Counted from the first letter of the stretch, positions 21,380 through 29,561 are shown. The stretch is 64,000 nucleotides of DNA from Candidatus Helarchaeota archaeon (GCA_019058315.1 JAHPZH010000003.1:105669-169668); one strand, 5' to 3'. Numbers and translations are program-made. The notes: generated by a model not told the origin, from the sequence alone.

Positions 21380-21913
21380 ATGACAATGGGATTAACCTAC
21401 AGATGTAAGTTAATATTATTTGGAAATGCTGCAGTTGGAAAAACATCAATTATTGATATGTATGTAAATAATAAATTTGAAGAAGAATATATTTCAACTC
21501 TTGGTTATAATGTTTTTGAAAAAAGTATTAAAATGAAGGATGAAAATATAGTAAATTTTATGATTTTTGATATAGGGGGACAAGAACAGTTTGAAGAACT
21601 AAGAAAGAAATATGCCGCTGGTGCTAAAGCCGCTCTTTTAGTTTATGATGTTACAAATAGAGAATCATTTGAAAACATAAAAAAATGGCAGAATGATCTT
21701 ATCAATTTTACAGAAAATGCTACTTTTATATTAGTTGGCAATAAAGTTGATTTAGAAGATGCAAGACAAATTCAAAAAGATGAGGGAGAAGCTTTAGCTA
21801 GTGATATTGGAGCGTATGGATTTTTTGAAACCTCAGCAAAAACAAATACAGAAATCGATGAAGCATTTCATAAATTAGCACAAGCATATTTAGAAATAGT
21901 TATCTCAAAATAA
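21380..21913 (+). CDS. Rab-like small GTPase (copy 1)
   Basis: G1 GNAAVGKTS, G2 YISTLG, G3 DIGGQE, LVYDVTNRESF, G4 GNKVD, G5 ETSAK; no C-terminal Cys motif. Confidence 0.95.
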   Translation: MTMGLTYRCKLILFGNAAVGKTSIIDMYVNNKFEEEYISTLGYNVFEKSIKMKDENIVNFMIFDIGGQEQFEELRKKYAAGAKAALLVYDVTNRESFENIKKWQNDLINFTENATFILVGNKVDLEDARQIQKDEGEALASDIGAYGFFETSAKTNTEIDEAFHKLAQAYLEIVISK

Positions 21914-21942
21914 GTAAATTATAATAATTTCTATTTTTTTAA

Positions 21943-23064
21943 TTATCTTGAAAACAATTCAGCAACTATATTTTCTACTGGATAAAATACGTCGATATTC
22001 CCGTCCCAATCCTTTAGGATGTTCTGATATAGATTTTCAACTTTATTAATAAATTGTTCTAAATTAAAAATTATTGAATTTAGTTTTTCATTGCTAATAA
22101 ATACTCCTGTAAGAAATTTACCGGAAAATATGTTTACTATCTTTCCTCTCTTCTCAATGATAGAGATTTTAGCGTCCGAAGCAGGGATTAGCTCTTCTAA
22201 CATAATATTAACGCTTGTTATAGCGCCAGACATTAAGACTTCAGTGATTTTTGCATCCTTATCAATAAATGATTTATAAAATGCACATAGACCAGAAGAT
22301 TTATCTATTAGAAGAATTTCTTCAACTTTACCTTGCCAATCAAATTCGGAGAACGGAGGTAGCTTTATGAAGAAACGAGATATTAATCCAAAGGATATTA
22401 ATTGAAGCACAGCTCCAAATAATTTGAATTCTAGACCAAATAATTTTAGGAAAAAATCAGTTGAAAATACTATACCTATTGATAATAAAAAAATCGGTGG
22501 AATAACAGTTATTAACTCAATTAGGACGTTTTCTTTATTCTTTGCTTTCTTAAAAAAATCATTGAAATACATTGTGATAAATAAGAGGACTATTGGTCCA
22601 TAAATATATAATGAGATTCTAATAATGGTTAAATTGAATAAAAATAAAGAATAAAAGAATATTACAAGCGAACCTAAACAAGTTGTAAAGAAATATTTTT
22701 TATAAACATATATTTTGTACTTTTCAATAAAATAAACAAGAATTAATGCACCAAATATAAAGGACATGTAGCCTAAATTAAGAAATAAATCCCGGAAACT
22801 ACCACTACTCCAAATAATAAAGGGGGAAATTACAAAATTTGAAGAAAAATAGTCACTAATAATTAAAAAAAGTCTCATAAGAGAAAAATCAAAAAAGAAA
22901 TAAGAAAAACCGAGTTCTTGAGATGATCTAAGTTGTTTTGGTTGCTTTAAATATTTCATAAAAAATATTATCCCAAGTTCTAACGAAATAACAGCATTTA
23001 TCCATTCTACTATTAATAATGGAATTCTTAATGGTCCATAAATAGGAAAATCGACAAATACCAT
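21943..23064 (-). CDS. 7-TM membrane protein with C-terminal longin-like domain
   Basis: Seven hydrophobic segments, PPFSEFDW linker, ILLIDKSSGLCAF...LMSGAITSVNIMLEEL...LKDWDGNIDVF. Confidence 0.8.
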   Translation of the reverse strand: MVFVDFPIYGPLRIPLLIVEWINAVISLELGIIFFMKYLKQPKQLRSSQELGFSYFFFDFSLMRLFLIISDYFSSNFVISPFIIWSSGSFRDLFLNLGYMSFIFGALILVYFIEKYKIYVYKKYFFTTCLGSLVIFFYSLFLFNLTIIRISLYIYGPIVLLFITMYFNDFFKKAKNKENVLIELITVIPPIFLLSIGIVFSTDFFLKLFGLEFKLFGAVLQLISFGLISRFFIKLPPFSEFDWQGKVEEILLIDKSSGLCAFYKSFIDKDAKITEVLMSGAITSVNIMLEELIPASDAKISIIEKRGKIVNIFSGKFLTGVFISNEKLNSIIFNLEQFINKVENLYQNILKDWDGNIDVFYPVENIVAELFSR

Positions 23065-23075
23065 TTAAATACCCT

Positions 23076-24275
23076 TTAATCTTTTAATATACTTTCTATC
23101 AAGGTTGTAAAACCAATAAAAAATTGCTCCTGTTTTTCCTTTAAACTATCTAAATTTAATAAAATCTCCTTATAGTATGATTCAAAGTTTGATTTAATAC
23201 TCTTCAAAAAATAACGATGACTGGCTATATCTTTTTTAACAGATAAAGCGTATGTAATATTAAATGGTTTTATTCCATATTCCAATAGAAGAATAGAATC
23301 TTCATGTTTTATTTTGCTAATTTTTTCAGTTTTTGTATCAGTTATTTGAGTAATTATTGATTCAATTCCCATAATTCCTCCTGTAAGCAGCTTTTCCTTA
23401 AGATATTTAGTAGCATCGTCTTCAATTTCATTTTCAGAGCTATTTTTTTTAATTAGTTCCGTTAAATCACAATAAAAAAGACCCTTGTTATCCTTTTGAT
23501 TAATTATAAATAATTTTAAAAGATTATCTTTCCATTCAAATTCGTAGAAAGGGGGAAAATCATTAGCAGAAAAAAATATTATAATAAATCCTGTTAATAA
23601 AATAGATACCCCTATATAATATACAAATTCATTTAATCCTGGAGGAAAAATACCCAATCCAACCTGTACTGCAAAAACAATTGAAGTAAGACTTATAATT
23701 TCACCAATAAAAAATTGGAGAATTTTTTTTCTAATATCACCTACAGCTTTTTTAATCAATTTAATTTGAAAATTAAGAATGTAATAAGCTCCAGAAAGCG
23801 TAAAGATAATACTAATAATAAAAATTGGTGATCTTGTTGAGGGTAATGCAATAACAGCTATAATAGGTATAAAACTTAAGGCTGTTAGAATTTTTACAAT
23901 TTTAAGATTCATTATTGAGGAAAATTCCTCTAATATAATAAAAGAGAGAAATCCAATTGGGGCGGAAAAACCAAAAATCCAACCAATTCTAGTATAGATA
24001 TCTCTTAATCTTATATTAGTAACAAAAAGTCTTGATACATTTAAAAATAATGCACCCAGCACAATGAAAAAGGTAAACGCCCCAAATGATAACAATATTC
24101 TATTTAATTTAAGATTAACATCCTGAATTTTATGGTATTGATAAAAAAAGTAGATAGCTAGTTGAATACCAATAACAACGGCAGCAAAATAAACTAAAAA
24201 CTGAATTTCTTGATTAGGGGTAATTTGAGAAAGCATTATACTAATTACTTCAAACAATGTGGAACCCCTTTTCAT
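23076..24275 (-). CDS. 7-TM membrane protein with C-terminal longin-like domain
   Basis: Seven hydrophobic segments, PPFYEFEW linker, LFIINQKD...LLTGGIMGIESIITQI...ILLLEYG...FESYYKEIL. Confidence 0.8.
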   Translation of the reverse strand: MKRGSTLFEVISIMLSQITPNQEIQFLVYFAAVVIGIQLAIYFFYQYHKIQDVNLKLNRILLSFGAFTFFIVLGALFLNVSRLFVTNIRLRDIYTRIGWIFGFSAPIGFLSFIILEEFSSIMNLKIVKILTALSFIPIIAVIALPSTRSPIFIISIIFTLSGAYYILNFQIKLIKKAVGDIRKKILQFFIGEIISLTSIVFAVQVGLGIFPPGLNEFVYYIGVSILLTGFIIIFFSANDFPPFYEFEWKDNLLKLFIINQKDNKGLFYCDLTELIKKNSSENEIEDDATKYLKEKLLTGGIMGIESIITQITDTKTEKISKIKHEDSILLLEYGIKPFNITYALSVKKDIASHRYFLKSIKSNFESYYKEILLNLDSLKEKQEQFFIGFTTLIESILKD

Positions 24276-24477
24276 TATATTTTAATTATAATCTATTTTT
24301 ACCTCATATAACGATTTTTTAATCTATAATAGAATAATAATCTTTAAAATATTTATTAAAAAATTATATGTCTGGATATAAATATCAGATATTTTATGAA
24401 TAATATATCAATAAATTTTAATTTAAAAAAATAAAATAGAAATTAGTTTTTATTATATGTTACTGGGAGATTTTATA

Positions 24478-25002
24478 ATGGAACACGAATTCAGATTCAA
24501 ATTAGTACTCTTCGGTAATGTGGCTGTAGGGAAAACCTCTATAGTTGATAGATATATAAATGATAAGTTTGAACAAGAATATATATCAACTTTAGGATAT
24601 AATGTTTTCGAAAAAAATATTGATGTGGGCGGAACTAGTGTTGCATTTATGATATTCGATATTGGAGGACAGGAACAATTTGAAGAGCTTCGGAAAAAAT
24701 ATGCAACAGGTGCAAAAGCAGCATTCTTAGTTTATGACGTTACAAATAGAGAAACATTCGATAATATAAAAAAATGGAATATAGATTTAGAGAAATTTTC
24801 AGACAATGCAACATTTATTTTAGTCGGGAATAAAGTTGATTTAGAAGATTTAAGAAAAGTACAGGTAAGAGAGGGAGCAGACTTAGCAAATGATATAGGT
24901 GCTGTAGGGTTTTTCGAAACTTCGGCAAAGACAGGCGAAGGAATAGATGATTCATTCTATAGATTGGCTCAAATATTACTAGAGAAAATGAAAAAATCAT
25001 AA
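24478..25002 (+). CDS. Rab-like small GTPase (copy 2)
   Basis: GNVAVGKTS, YISTLG, DIGGQE, GNKVD, ETSAK. Start placed at ATG 24478 after GGGAG (the ORF track gives 24457). Confidence 0.95.
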   Translation: MEHEFRFKLVLFGNVAVGKTSIVDRYINDKFEQEYISTLGYNVFEKNIDVGGTSVAFMIFDIGGQEQFEELRKKYATGAKAAFLVYDVTNRETFDNIKKWNIDLEKFSDNATFILVGNKVDLEDLRKVQVREGADLANDIGAVGFFETSAKTGEGIDDSFYRLAQILLEKMKKS

Positions 25003-25100
25003 TATATGAGAATAAAAATTTAATAGTTATTCAATTTTTTATCGTTCTATTAATATTTAAATGGTTTTTTATTTAAATTATAGGAGCATGGAAGCATATA

Positions 25101-26222
25101 TTGATAATTTTTAATACAATAAGAGAAGCAATGTTACGATTGGACTTTTTAATTGTTATTCTCACCATTGAATTATCTTTAATTTTTATCAGGCAATGGT
25201 ATATGGATAAGAAACAAAAATCTGAAAATATAGTCTCCCTTAGTTATGGTATTTACTACCTAATCATAGGACTAGGTTTTGCAATATATTCAATAAGAAG
25301 ACATTATCTTAATAATAACCCATTTTGGAGATTTTTTGGAATTCAATCGAATTATTCATATTTTCTTTTTATTTTAGCAATATTTAGTATGTGTTGTGGA
25401 TCACTTCTATTTTCTTTAGCACTAGAGTTTAAATACAGAAAATTTTTAAAAACCAAATTTAGTTTTTCGCTATTTTTAGCAAGTCTATTATTTATGCTTT
25501 TAATTTTTCAAAAAACACCTTTTTTTTTCCCAATTATTAATTCATTTGCTGTCTTCTCTGCACTTTTTCCATATCTATTTATTTATTATTTAATTGTAAA
25601 TACATTAGGAAGAATTAGAAAAAAACTAATTTTTGGAGCAATTTCTTTAACAATTACAATTATTGGATTGGCGGGTGTATCAGACCAAGGTATAATGATT
25701 TTAAAAAATGTTTCGCCTTATTTTGAACCTTATTTAATTATATTTCAATTATTAGGTGTGTTTGGATTAATTTTATTAATCCTTTCTTTTTGGGGGTTTA
25801 ATTTATTATTAGAAGCTCAATGGAAAGGGAATATAATATCACTTTTTATAATCGATAGATATAGAGGAGATCCTTTATTTACAAAGAAATTTTTGCCAGA
25901 TATTCGAGATGTTGAAGATACAGATGGATTTTTAGCGAAAGGTTTAAAGGGTATTATAGGTCAGATAAGTGAATTATCAGAAACCAAAAAAAACTTACAT
26001 ATTATAGATAAGGAAAATTTAAAAATTGTATTACATTATGGAGAAAAAATTGTTTCTGCTTTATTGATAAGAAGAGAATTAATGAATATTAATTATATTC
26101 TTTCAAAAATAACACTAAAATTTGAGGATAATTTTCTGCCTTTTTATGATTCATGGTTAAAAGAGGATGATATTTTTAAGCCAATGGATAAAATTATTGG
26201 AGAATTAATTCCAGGTATTTAG
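25101..26222 (+). CDS. 7-TM membrane protein with C-terminal longin-like domain
   Basis: Seven hydrophobic segments, LLEAQW linker, LFIIDRYRGDPLF...FLAKGLKGIIGQISEL...IVLHYGEKIVSALLI. Confidence 0.8.
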   Translation: MIIFNTIREAMLRLDFLIVILTIELSLIFIRQWYMDKKQKSENIVSLSYGIYYLIIGLGFAIYSIRRHYLNNNPFWRFFGIQSNYSYFLFILAIFSMCCGSLLFSLALEFKYRKFLKTKFSFSLFLASLLFMLLIFQKTPFFFPIINSFAVFSALFPYLFIYYLIVNTLGRIRKKLIFGAISLTITIIGLAGVSDQGIMILKNVSPYFEPYLIIFQLLGVFGLILLILSFWGFNLLLEAQWKGNIISLFIIDRYRGDPLFTKKFLPDIRDVEDTDGFLAKGLKGIIGQISELSETKKNLHIIDKENLKIVLHYGEKIVSALLIRRELMNINYILSKITLKFEDNFLPFYDSWLKEDDIFKPMDKIIGELIPGI

Positions 26223-26232
26223 GTGCGATTTT

Positions 26233-27297
26233 TTGCTAGAAATAGTATTTTTAGGAGAAAATAGAGAAATAGCTATGGTAGTAGAGGGAATATTAATTTT
26301 ATTATGTTGGCAATTCTCAGTTTATTTTTCATATAAATATTATCGAAATGTAAAAGATCAAAAATTATCAAGAAATGAATTGGATTGGGCACTATTTTTT
26401 GTATCATTTGGATTTACACATTTTTTTTATCAATTTGCGGATTATTATCCAGTGGATCACCAATTTTTTTCGTTTTTGGGTTATATAAGCATGGGTATAG
26501 GGATATTTTTATTCACAACACATTTAGAAAAAATTAAAACGATTCAAACGAAATGGGTATTTCCAGCGATAACTTTTATTATTCTTCTTAGTTTTATAAT
26601 CACTTATATTTATGATCCCAGATTACCACAAACTTTAGCCATTATATTGATTATCCCAGCAACAATTATTATTCCATATTTCATATTTAGGATGTTTAAA
26701 ACTTTAAGTCGTAGATATCAATTCTATACTATAGGTCTATTTGGGGGGTTATCCTTTATTCTGGTTGGAAACCTTGGAGCATCTGATGTTGCCGTTTCCA
26801 TTTTTGGAACATATATAAGGATATTAGCGAGTCTATTAATGATATTAGGAATTAGTTTACTTGCGCTTTTTTTCAATATATTACCCTCACTATCAGAACT
26901 TAATTGGTATGATAAACTAAAATATATTATAATTATAGATCAAACCGGGATTTGCTTGTATGATGAAGATTTCCAAGAAAAAACTAGATTAAACAAAAGA
27001 TTATTAGCTGCTGCTTTATTCAACGTTCATGAATTTTTGGATCAAATGACAAAAGGATTCAAAAAGCTGAAAATTCTTGAAAAAGGAGATGAATTCTTTA
27101 TTTTAGAGTATGGACAACAAGTAATCGGAGTATTAGTAACTACAGAATTATTGGAATCTTTAAAATATCTTTTAAGAAGTTTTGTAATAGAATTTGAGAA
27201 TTTTTATTCAGATATTTTAAAATCTTGGAACGGTGATGCTCGAATGTTTCTCCCCACGTCCCAATTAACATCAAAAATATTCAAAAAGATTCGATGA
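26233..27297 (+). CDS. 7-TM membrane protein with C-terminal longin-like domain
   Basis: Seven hydrophobic segments, PSLSELNW linker, IIIIDQTGICLY...LLAAALFNVHEFLDQM...LKSWNGDARMF. Confidence 0.82.
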   Translation: MLEIVFLGENREIAMVVEGILILLCWQFSVYFSYKYYRNVKDQKLSRNELDWALFFVSFGFTHFFYQFADYYPVDHQFFSFLGYISMGIGIFLFTTHLEKIKTIQTKWVFPAITFIILLSFIITYIYDPRLPQTLAIILIIPATIIIPYFIFRMFKTLSRRYQFYTIGLFGGLSFILVGNLGASDVAVSIFGTYIRILASLLMILGISLLALFFNILPSLSELNWYDKLKYIIIIDQTGICLYDEDFQEKTRLNKRLLAAALFNVHEFLDQMTKGFKKLKILEKGDEFFILEYGQQVIGVLVTTELLESLKYLLRSFVIEFENFYSDILKSWNGDARMFLPTSQLTSKIFKKIR

Positions 27298-27345: not shown

Positions 27346-27906
27346 TTGTTTCCAAGATATAATTTAAAAATTCTTGTTATTGGTATTTCAATCGTGATAT
27401 TTTGTGGAATTATGTTTCCAATTTTAAGCTATCCATGGGAATTTAGTGTTTTATTATCAGTATTATTAAATATTGGTCATTCTGTTGCCTTTTGGGGTAT
27501 GATCTTAATTTTTATTAATTTAGTTCTCCATTATACAAGAAAAAGACGTGATTATAAATTTAAGGAATTCGCAATGACTTCTGGACTTTCTTTTATACCT
27601 TTATTGATTTATAATATTTTTATACCAATTTTAAATAATTTAAAATCCGACAATCTCATCAGTGCTTGGGATATTAATTTAATAACGGTCAGTACAAATA
27701 GGGAATCCTTTCAAATCTTGTTTTTTTTCTCAAGGATAATAACAATATTGTGTATTTTTTTCTTTCTTTTACTCTTGAGCTTCAGTATAAGAGATACATT
27801 TGAACTCGAATTAATTAAAGCAATATATCTTTGTATCTTTATTGTACTAATAGCATACTTGATTTCGGATGGTTTATTCACCATATGGGAGTTCTTTGAA
27901 TTATGA
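27346..27906 (+). CDS. 5-TM membrane protein, Yip1-like
   Basis: Five hydrophobic segments; FKEFAMTSGLSFIPLLI and LSFSIRDTFELELIKAI resemble Yip1-domain motifs. Confidence 0.5.
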   Translation: MFPRYNLKILVIGISIVIFCGIMFPILSYPWEFSVLLSVLLNIGHSVAFWGMILIFINLVLHYTRKRRDYKFKEFAMTSGLSFIPLLIYNIFIPILNNLKSDNLISAWDINLITVSTNRESFQILFFFSRIITILCIFFFLLLLSFSIRDTFELELIKAIYLCIFIVLIAYLISDGLFTIWEFFEL

Positions 27907-29135
27907 GAAAACTGGAAACTGCTTTTTTATCTGCGATTCTAATCATTGCAGGTGTTTCATATTTATCATATTGGTGGATTGAAACTGATGTTACGCCACA
28001 GAATAGAGTGGTTGATTTATGGGGAATAGACCCATTTTCTATTGGATTACAATATGGATTATCTTGTAAAAATGAAATTCAAGGTATATGTTCAGGTCTG
28101 ACTCTAGTAGATGGTCTTTTTAAGCTCATTACGAATTTAGCGAGTATTCATTTTACTTTTATAATGCAACCTTTTGTCCCAAAAGAATATCTAATAGAAA
28201 TGTGTGGAGTTGCTTTAGGAGCAGGCGTGACTTATAATCAGATTTTTTTTCTGAATTATATGGCGGATTACATGCAGATATTATCAGAAAGTGCAATGAG
28301 TTGCTCACAATTTATTTTAATCAATAATACTCTTCCAATTTATGGGCCAATGTTTGGACGAACATTAGATTATCCAGGAGACGTGGTGTTGGATAGATAT
28401 CAGGTTATTATAAGACTAAATGACTATCCCGGTAGTGGACATTCAATAATCGGGCATACAATCGCTGGAATGATTGGATACTTAACTGGGATAAATGAAG
28501 AAGGATTAACTATTGGTGTAAGTCAGATTAATCCTCATAAAATTGATATTGGTCCTGGAATGTCTTGTGTATTAGCAATTCGGGATATTCTTCAACATAA
28601 TGAGACTACTGAACAAGCTGCAAAGACTTTTGGTGATTATGAGCGTCATACAGTAGGAGCATGGTGTTTTGCGATATTAGATGGGAATGGTTCTGCAGCA
28701 GTTGTTGAATTAGCTCATAAAATTCCAGATACGCAAGAAGTATTTAATAATACAATAAAGGGTGATGATTTACCTTTCATGGTAATTACCAATCATTTTA
28801 TATCCCCTGAAATGTATCCTCTCTCCGCTCATTCTCAACAATCAGAAGCTAGATTCGATGCTTTACTTCATGAAATTCCAAAAATACCTTATCATGATTT
28901 ATCGTCAGCAATTAATTTATTAAAGTCCCATTATGATCCAATTTTAAAGTGTAACAATCCAGGTCATCGAACCGTATGTAATCATGGAATACAGCCCTAT
29001 CATGGTACAATGGGAGGTTTTATTGGAGTACCTAAGACCCCTATGGCGGTTTTTTGCCTTGGTCGACCATGTGAATCAGATTTTTATATTATGACTTTTG
29101 AGCCAATTAATTATCTCATTGGACCAATTACTTAA
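27903..29135 (+). CDS. Membrane-anchored Ntn-hydrolase, peptidase C45 / acid-ceramidase-like
   Basis: Autocleavage Cys in MS|CSQF, GRTLDY, TGINEEGL, ITNHF; N-terminal TM; 4 bp overlap with the upstream gene. Confidence 0.85.
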   Translation: MRKLETAFLSAILIIAGVSYLSYWWIETDVTPQNRVVDLWGIDPFSIGLQYGLSCKNEIQGICSGLTLVDGLFKLITNLASIHFTFIMQPFVPKEYLIEMCGVALGAGVTYNQIFFLNYMADYMQILSESAMSCSQFILINNTLPIYGPMFGRTLDYPGDVVLDRYQVIIRLNDYPGSGHSIIGHTIAGMIGYLTGINEEGLTIGVSQINPHKIDIGPGMSCVLAIRDILQHNETTEQAAKTFGDYERHTVGAWCFAILDGNGSAAVVELAHKIPDTQEVFNNTIKGDDLPFMVITNHFISPEMYPLSAHSQQSEARFDALLHEIPKIPYHDLSSAINLLKSHYDPILKCNNPGHRTVCNHGIQPYHGTMGGFIGVPKTPMAVFCLGRPCESDFYIMTFEPINYLIGPIT

Positions 29136-29147
29136 GGAGATAAAAAT

Positions 29148-29561
29148 ATGGAATTTGAATTAAAAGAAACGAAATTTGAAGAAAAAATAACCCCTATTAA
29201 AATTTATCTAAAAAGAATCTTAAGAATATTAGTCAGTTCATTAGTTGGAATAATCGCAGGATTGGGTATGTTAGTTCTAAATATCTTTTGGTCTATGAAT
29301 TTCATTCCTGAAATATCTTATAATGATAAAATGTCATTTTCAATTATTTCATTAGGATTACAAGCACTTTTCATCTTGGGTCCACAATTTATTGCAGGTT
29401 TTATCTCAACAAGTATTAAAAAGGCATTAATAACAGCAATAGTTGTAACCGCAACTTTAGGTACTATTTCATTTTTGTTTAGTGTAATTCAAGGAGTGGT
29501 AAACTCAGCAATAATTATTCTAGGAATTTATATAGGCGGATATTATGCTGAACGACTTTAA
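29148..29561 (+). CDS. Small 4-TM membrane protein
   Basis: Hydrophobic segments; AGGAG SD; same operon. Confidence 0.75.
   Translation: MEFELKETKFEEKITPIKIYLKRILRILVSSLVGIIAGLGMLVLNIFWSMNFIPEISYNDKMSFSIISLGLQALFILGPQFIAGFISTSIKKALITAIVVTATLGTISFLFSVIQGVVNSAIIILGIYIGGYYAERL

Follow-up and report, generated by a model that had tools for sequence, protein, structure and literature searches.

Whether membrane-embedded longin proteins work together with the small GTPases encoded beside them is the question raised by a locus at positions 21,380 to 27,297 of a 64,000-nt stretch of Candidatus Helarchaeota archaeon (GCA_019058315.1 JAHPZH010000003.1:105669-169668; hereafter the window). Six open reading frames (ORFs) occupy 21380-27297. 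Two code for Rab-like small GTPases and four for proteins in which a bundle of seven transmembrane (TM) helices is fused to a C-terminal longin domain (7TM-longin proteins). The membrane proteins come as two pairs, each made of an A-type and a B-type subunit. It is about an even chance that each unit is a membrane-embedded A/B longin platform on which the neighbouring, lipid-free Rab-like GTPase docks. The features of the locus are listed below, with lengths in amino acids (aa).

21380..21913, + strand: P0001, Rab-like small GTPase, 177 aa (Pfam Ras), convergent with the first pair
21943..23064, - strand: P0002, B-type 7TM-longin protein, 373 aa (AlphaFold2 model; clade B); in this model, TM bundle at ~22363-23028 and longin domain at ~21946-22356
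23076..24275, - strand: P0003, A-type 7TM-longin protein, 399 aa (AlphaFold2 model, fold matches; clade A); in this model, TM bundle at ~23565-24218 and longin domain at ~23079-23552
24276..24456, no strand: AT-rich divergent intergenic region of 181 bp between P0003 and P0004 (sequence read), presumed promoter region for both units
24457..25002, + strand: P0004, Rab-like small GTPase, 181 aa (Pfam Ras), co-directional with P0005 and P0006
25101..26222, + strand: P0005, A-type 7TM-longin protein, 373 aa from a TTG start (alignment, tree; start uncertain); longin domain at ~25803-26219
26233..27297, + strand: P0006, B-type 7TM-longin protein, 354 aa (alignment, tree); longin domain at ~26887-27294

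The pairing of the membrane proteins is reflected in their phylogeny. In a tree of 77 proteins, all upstream genes of a pair form one clade (SH-aLRT 97) and all downstream genes another (SH-aLRT 96), with mirrored subtrees. P0003 and P0005 belong to the first, clade A, P0002 and P0006 to the second, clade B, and the order in a pair is always A then B. The distances among A proteins follow those among their B partners (Mantel r = 0.83; 0 of 5000 permutations as high), and two or three diverged A/B pairs are found in several genomes. As judged from the sequences, A and B are two old paralogue clades whose pairs were duplicated and passed on together, as would be expected if the heteromer were obligate. 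Since distinct clades, mirrored subtrees and co-divergence mark the pair as one evolutionary unit, A and B probably form a heteromer. This agrees with an earlier reading of the window made from the sequence alone (the sequence-only reading), which had proposed two different subunits per pair. The family counts 273 representatives of 50%-identity clusters (E<=1e-30) and is present in 56 of the 151 sampled genomes of the phylum (E<=1e-20); its named relatives are all 'hypothetical proteins' from Asgard metagenome-assembled genomes (MAGs). In the window's own class the genes are nearly always adjacent pairs. Other families of the phylum were represented by 24 loci, of which 22 have just one gene and the other two a tandem pair. 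The proteins of these loci group outside the A and B clades.

The layout of the locus was largely as the sequence-only reading had described it: all six ORFs, their strands and their spacing stood, including the short gaps within pairs (11 bp for P0002/P0003 and 10 bp for P0005/P0006). In both pairs a Shine-Dalgarno-like site overlaps or closely follows the upstream gene's stop codon, and the AGGTG site of P0006 overlaps the stop codon of P0005. P0004 is co-directional with P0005 and P0006 (gaps of 98 bp and 10 bp) and divergent from P0003 across the 181 bp of the presumed shared promoter region. One point of the layout needs correcting, the relation of the first GTPase to its pair. P0001 and P0002 lie tail to tail, 29 bp apart with a common T-run, and it is because of this convergent orientation that P0001 is not co-transcribed with the P0003-P0002 pair.

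The four membrane proteins share only 19-24% pairwise identity and are related by profile with E-values of 1e-78 to 1e-151, which makes them real but distant paralogues at the sequence level. The models of P0002 (pLDDT 80.6, pTM 0.75) and P0003 (pLDDT 80.5, pTM 0.70) computed with AlphaFold2 both contain seven TM helices and a short junction helix bearing an ExxW motif, followed by elements in the order strand-strand-helix-strand-strand-strand-helix-helix. In P0002 these were assigned by DSSP to E247-254, E260-265, H275-292, E300-305, E308-314, E318-324, H329-351 and H357-370. The elements follow the same order in the longin domain of P0003, where strand 2 and helix 1 are separated by an additional insert of low confidence. 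The sequences of P0005 and P0006 align with the modelled proteins and have approximately seven hydropathy peaks each. The junction motifs PPFSEFDW, PPFYEFEW, NLLLEAQW and PSLSELNW are located directly past the last TM segment of all four proteins. The means of Lys+Arg per loop over 23 family members are 2.1 for TM 1-2, 3.7 for TM 3-4 and 3.4 for TM 5-6, and only 0.2-0.4 at the N-terminus and in the remaining loops. Because of this bias, the positive-inside rule predicts an N-terminus outside and a cytoplasmic longin domain. The seven hydrophobic segments, the conserved linker after TM7 and the inward-facing C-terminal longin domain of the sequence-only reading were thus borne out by models, motifs and loop charges. 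The four proteins, TM part included, had no significant match in Pfam or NCBIfam.

The two GTPases are 69% identical and match Pfam Ras at 6e-50 (P0001) and 1.5e-48 (P0004). Both have intact G1-G5 motifs and retain the catalytic Gln; in P0001 the motifs read GNAAVGKT (G1), DIGGQ (G3), NKVD (G4) and SAK (G5). The closest solved relatives of P0004 are Rab21, Rab8A, Rab3, Sec4 and Rab1A (~1e-33), and for both GTPases the top ones are all Rabs. The C-termini (...EIVISK and ...EKMKKS) contain no Cys and hence no geranylgeranylation motif. Because the tail lacks Cys, neither protein can be prenylated as far as the sequence tells, as had been anticipated, and P0001 and P0004 are best described as Rab-like rather than bona fide Rabs. 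Nothing suggests a defence system, because PADLOC returned no match for the membrane proteins and only VakA at 0.0037 for P0001.

The association of GTPase and pair was compared across 14 related pair loci with usable flanks. A small GTPase gene lies within 1 kb of the pair in six of them, for an expectation of ~0.065 per locus derived from 44-57 Ras-family matches per 3.1-4.5 Mb in related genomes. The corresponding P is ~1e-4, or ~1e-3 if the sample is reduced to 4/8 for related loci, and relatedness still overstates both values. The GTPase gene is positioned upstream, downstream or divergently according to lineage. In an all-against-all comparison of neighbours, the GTPase was the only family common beyond near-identical genomes; radical SAM, MFS and AAT-type hydrolase neighbours had no recurrent link to pairs. 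All three A/B arrays of this genome are GTPase-linked, namely the two window units and an array on contig C5, and the four GTPases beside them (P0001, P0004 and two at C5) group in a single clade with support 100. A Helarchaeota-labelled MAG (GCA_013375355.1) has all six genes in the same layout, with 72-86% protein identity. The array on C5 (C5:1284350-1292965) consists of six tandem 7TM-longin genes in the order A-B-A-B-B-B; two small GTPase genes in convergent orientation lie 52 bp further on.

The GTPase genes of the relatives have some peculiarities of their own. Three pair-adjacent genes (L061:277-816, - strand; L062:3256-3795, + strand; L064:2018-2560, - strand) encode an intact P-loop with no ATG, GTG or TTG between the upstream stop and the P-loop; judged from these sequences, a non-canonical start codon is likely. 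Two of the three share RISFDAAFK before the P-loop. In another relative (genome G071), a module of GTPase, A and B genes is flanked on both sides by ~520-aa proteins with a Ras-type GTPase domain (L063:2670-4235 and L063:7515-9071), whose N-termini look roadblock-like by eye.

What the longin domains might do to a GTPase can be approached from their fold, which serves eukaryotes in docking and regulating such GTP switches. Those of both models superpose best on Fuzzy/Inturned of CPLANE (7q3d_C; Z 14.0 and 14.1). Solved longins as a group (Fuzzy/Inturned, Sec22, VAMP7, the sigma and mu subunits of AP, Mon1-Ccz1 and TRAPP) match with Z 11.7-14.1 and a root mean square deviation (rmsd) of 2.3-3.2 A over 112-127 residues, the matches of P0002 reaching Z 12-14 over residues 246-373. 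SRX of SR-alpha is another domain that superposes over the full length. Roadblock proteins (MglB, LAMTOR and an Asgard roadblock protein) match with Z 10.5-11.7, only over residues 241-348, and miss the last helix. In addition, no helix precedes strand 1 in the models except the short ExxW junction helix, and two helices close the domain. By its element order and whole-domain superposition, the modelled C-terminal domain is a longin fold, not a roadblock, as the sequence-only reading had it.

Sequence comparison points in the same direction. The longin-domain profile had yeast Trs23 as its sole clear match in the PDB (8.5e-4), and Sybindin (PF04099) was the commonest Pfam family among members, found in 8 of 18 at E<=1 (best 7.8e-5). 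P0006 itself matched Sybindin with 13.9 bits (E 0.058), below the gathering cut-off of 25 bits. A cluster of Asgard proteins named Fuz/Mon1/HPS1 longin in the ESM Atlas matched with TM 0.77. Foldseek against the PDB returned nothing at E<=1e-3 (best 4.5e-3), and its weak rows were all longin or roadblock proteins.

The roadblock matches bring in the alternative that the longin pair acts as a platform of the GTPase-activating kind, comparable to MglB or GATOR1/FLCN, and switches the neighbouring GTPase off at the membrane. Roadblock and longin GTPase-activating proteins (GAPs) are the best-documented prokaryotic and Rag-type regulators, and a Lys in the hairpin of strands 3 and 4 is almost invariant in B-type longins. 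On the other hand, the domain topology is that of a longin, the nearest relatives in sequence and fold are longins of the guanine nucleotide exchange factor (GEF) type (Trs23, Sybindin, Fuzzy/Inturned, Mon1-Ccz1), no conserved Arg finger candidate is evident in the A or B alignment, and the retained catalytic Gln makes the GTPases unlike MglA. An off-switch of this kind is considered improbable. Nor is it likely, to a similar degree, that the longin domains are an anchor or effector site that binds the GTP form alone and tethers it without catalysis, in the manner of SRX bound to SR-beta-GTP. The A-type model counts SRX-SR-beta complexes among its best fold matches (Z 12.1 and 12.0), and GTPases without lipid anchors would suit such a tether; nevertheless, a conserved design with two subunits is found more typically in longin platforms that catalyse, such as TRAPP and Mon1-Ccz1. 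Between recruitment with nucleotide exchange, GAP activity and pure effector binding, the first is slightly favoured by analogy, since longins of the GEF type are what the domain most resembles in both sequence and fold.

The TM bundles of P0002 and P0003, ~20% identical, find the same top classes of structures, adhesion and class C G-protein-coupled receptors (GPCRs). ADGRL3, CD97, ADGRV1 and GABA-B match with Z 11.3-12.7 over ~210 residues at an rmsd of 3.9-5 A. PAQR/ceramidase proteins and rhodopsins rank below the GPCRs. The predicted topology is also that of a GPCR, with seven TM helices, the N-terminus outside and the C-terminus inside. Helical bundles call for caution up to a Z of ~13, and because the scores are below this level the modelled bundle is termed GPCR-shaped and is not called a GPCR. 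A feature search of the TM part in the ESM Atlas gave only scores <0.9, with HisKA_7TM in 10% of one cluster, a lead only. Two further ORFs of this genome, of 228 aa (C2:162963-163649) and 243 aa (C2:166157-166888), match the 7TM part alone (E 1e-10 and 8e-6) and carry no longin domain. The receptor-like shape invites a more specific form of the exchange reading, an archaeal receptor-GEF in which an A/B 7TM heterodimer would sense an external or membrane signal and the fused longin pair, of a TRAPP/Mon1-Ccz1-like kind, would directly load GTP onto the lipid-free Rab-like GTPase; this full version seems quite unlikely.

Several observations weigh against a GTPase-docking platform. No GTPase is found within ~5 kb at 8 of the 14 related pair loci, nor at any of the 24 loci from other families, so that the link to GTPases expected from the sequence-only reading is not universal. 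The GTPases adjacent to pairs in relatives fall in two other clades, and a single clade is absent from the free tree, albeit not rejected (approximately unbiased test, p = 0.29). P0001 cannot share a transcript with its pair. The longin domain appears to be a remote Sybindin relative rather than a scored member of the family, and the bundle matches remain under the level at which a GPCR assignment would be made. Moreover, 112 ORFs of this genome carry the longin type, among them ~42 TM-longin proteins of ~360 aa, and the majority lie at a distance from any GTPase. For this reason the longin domain could be a general adaptor.

The rest of this longin repertoire comprises ~50 soluble forms and ~14 proteins of ~1,130 aa with the domain at the extreme C-terminus, one of them with weak TPR and MIT matches; GTPase-like ORFs number 115 in the same genome. 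A 540-aa MFS transporter (C5:824007-825629; Pfam MFS_1, 3.5e-18) is fused to a C-terminal domain of the same longin type, and from its sequence it may be read as a transporter whose tail is a GTPase platform. Several other genomes of the phylum have open frames of 525-570 aa that match at the C-terminus.

The corresponding alternative does without GTPases: a transporter, a channel or a lipid hydrolase of the PAQR or alkaline ceramidase kind would make up the 7TM part, the longin would be a general regulatory or oligomerisation module, and adjacency would be a loose co-regulation in a GTPase-rich genome. The pair loci without a GTPase neighbour (about half, in addition to all 24 other-family loci) accord with it, as do the fusions that the same longin type forms in this genome, with an MFS transporter and with many further architectures, and the presence of ACER3 and AdipoR2 among the TM matches (Z 10.2-11.2). 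It is nonetheless countered by the GTPase being the only recurrent neighbour, enriched ~7-fold or more. PAQR and ceramidase proteins have their N-terminus inside, in contrast with the N-out topology predicted here, and no His/Asp metal-site pattern was noted among the invariant residues. An explanation without any GTPase is thus held to be unlikely.

Returning to the docking platform, the following arrangement can be proposed. One A-type and one B-type protein would join in a heteromer with two GPCR-shaped bundles of seven helices, each N-terminus lying outside. On the cytoplasmic side, the sybindin-like longin domains fused to the bundles would pair at the surface of the membrane, in the way of Bet5-Trs23 in TRAPP or of Mon1-Ccz1. 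The neighbouring Rab-like GTPase, which has no lipid anchor, would dock on the longin platform and so be recruited to and regulated at the membrane, and the 7TM bundles could make docking depend on a ligand or on the state of the membrane. A predicted complex of the P0005 and P0006 longin domains with P0004 scored 0.74, and a control with chain 1 replaced 0.56, which is evidence neither way. In short, GTPase binding, the direction of regulation and sensing are what we infer, together with heteromer formation, from the observed architecture, topology, fold, co-diverging A/B paralogy and enriched GTPase adjacency. The interpretation given in the sequence-only reading is to that extent supported in part.

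Two details of the second unit and its surroundings can be added. Around the start of P0005 (window 25084-25103), an in-frame TTG lies 14 nt past AGGAG and an out-of-frame ATG directly after AGGAG; an alternative in-frame ATG is found 10 codons further downstream. Three co-directional genes follow at window 27346-29561, beginning 48 bp past P0006. The first (186 aa) has no Pfam match at E<=0.01 and the second codes for an AAT/Ntn-hydrolase-type protein (PF03417, 1.5e-16). These genes are outside the neighbour families common to related pair loci.

Asgard genomes encode dozens of small GTPases and more than 100 longin or roadblock proteins. Many Asgard roadblock and longin families have been catalogued (Liu et al., bioRxiv 10.1101/2020.10.19.343400), and structures of Asgard roadblock, Rab-like and TRAPPC3 proteins have been solved (Tran et al. 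2024, PMC10933270). In the cultured Asgard archaeon MK-D1, GTPase genes are generally outside operons with roadblock, longin or TRAPPC3 genes, and because of this partners cannot generally be read off the genome layout; the Asgard proteins expressed in human cells in that study showed no membrane targeting (Tran et al. 2024, PMC10933270). A 2026 preprint (PMC13734099) refers to Asgard '7TM proteins' and to GPCR-like structural clusters without going into detail. A literature search found no description of the 7TM-longin fusion or of its A/B pairing, and the architecture of 7TM-longin proteins beside a Rab-like GTPase is real and apparently undescribed. The novelty resides in a proposed longin GTPase platform of a known kind being fused to a receptor-shaped membrane bundle and paired. 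The locus supplies candidates that match one another and can be cloned, namely a GTPase with two longin subunits embedded in the membrane, and suggests a simple route of unprenylated Rab-like GTPases to the membrane. If binding and exchange proved true, longin-based Rab regulation at membranes would predate eukaryotes and would have been fused to a receptor-like bundle. If the receptor-GEF were real as well, it would represent a prokaryotic forerunner of receptor-to-G-protein signalling and of GEF-defined membrane identity.

Known systems share parts of this design. MglA-MglB, LAMTOR/Ragulator and the Asgard roadblock proteins are dimeric small-GTPase platforms of the same alpha/beta superfamily; roadblocks have an N-terminal helix and one C-terminal helix, whereas the domain described here has no N-terminal helix and two C-terminal ones. 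An Asgard operon that combines a Rab-like GTPase with a LAMTOR1-like roadblock protein and a DENN protein was put forward as a possible GEF module (Liu et al., bioRxiv 10.1101/2020.10.19.343400). As in the window, a conserved neighbourhood joins a Rab-like GTPase to the roadblock/longin superfamily, although the components of that operon, DENN included, are soluble and the present locus has neither DENN nor roadblock, its longin being fused to a 7TM bundle as an A/B pair. Adhesion/class B2 and class C GPCRs share the seven helices, the outside N-terminus and the inside C-terminus. SLC38A9 and GPR155/LYCHOS, which signal to Rag GTPases, share the logic of a membrane protein that controls a GTPase through a cytosolic part. 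Unlike eukaryotic 7TM receptors, to which there is no sequence-family match, the system described here has no heterotrimeric G protein and its output domain is covalently fused. In the actinobacterial conservon CvnA-D, which is present in several copies per genome, the gene for a membrane sensor is clustered with those for a Ras-like GTPase and a roadblock-type protein. Its sensor is histidine-kinase-like and its roadblock protein separate and soluble, in contrast with the 7TM-longin fusion and the A/B pair, which it lacks.

The closest counterparts are the longin GEFs. In the TRAPP core, the Rab1/Ypt1 GEF, Bet5/TRAPPC1 and Trs23/TRAPPC4 are two different adjoining longin subunits, as the A and B longins are proposed to be. 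TRAPP longins are also the best sequence-level relatives (Trs23, and Sybindin in the 8 members) and serve a Rab-type GTPase. They are soluble and require Bet3 and other subunits, whereas here the longin is fused to a 7TM bundle with no Bet3-like gene nearby. Mon1-Ccz1, Fuzzy-Inturned (CPLANE) and HPS1-HPS4 (BLOC-3) are likewise heterodimers of paralogous longin proteins, in which the first longin domains form the Rab-binding site. These Rab GEFs have three longins per protein and are soluble, being recruited by lipids or proteins; in the archaeal pairs each chain carries a single longin that is built into the membrane.

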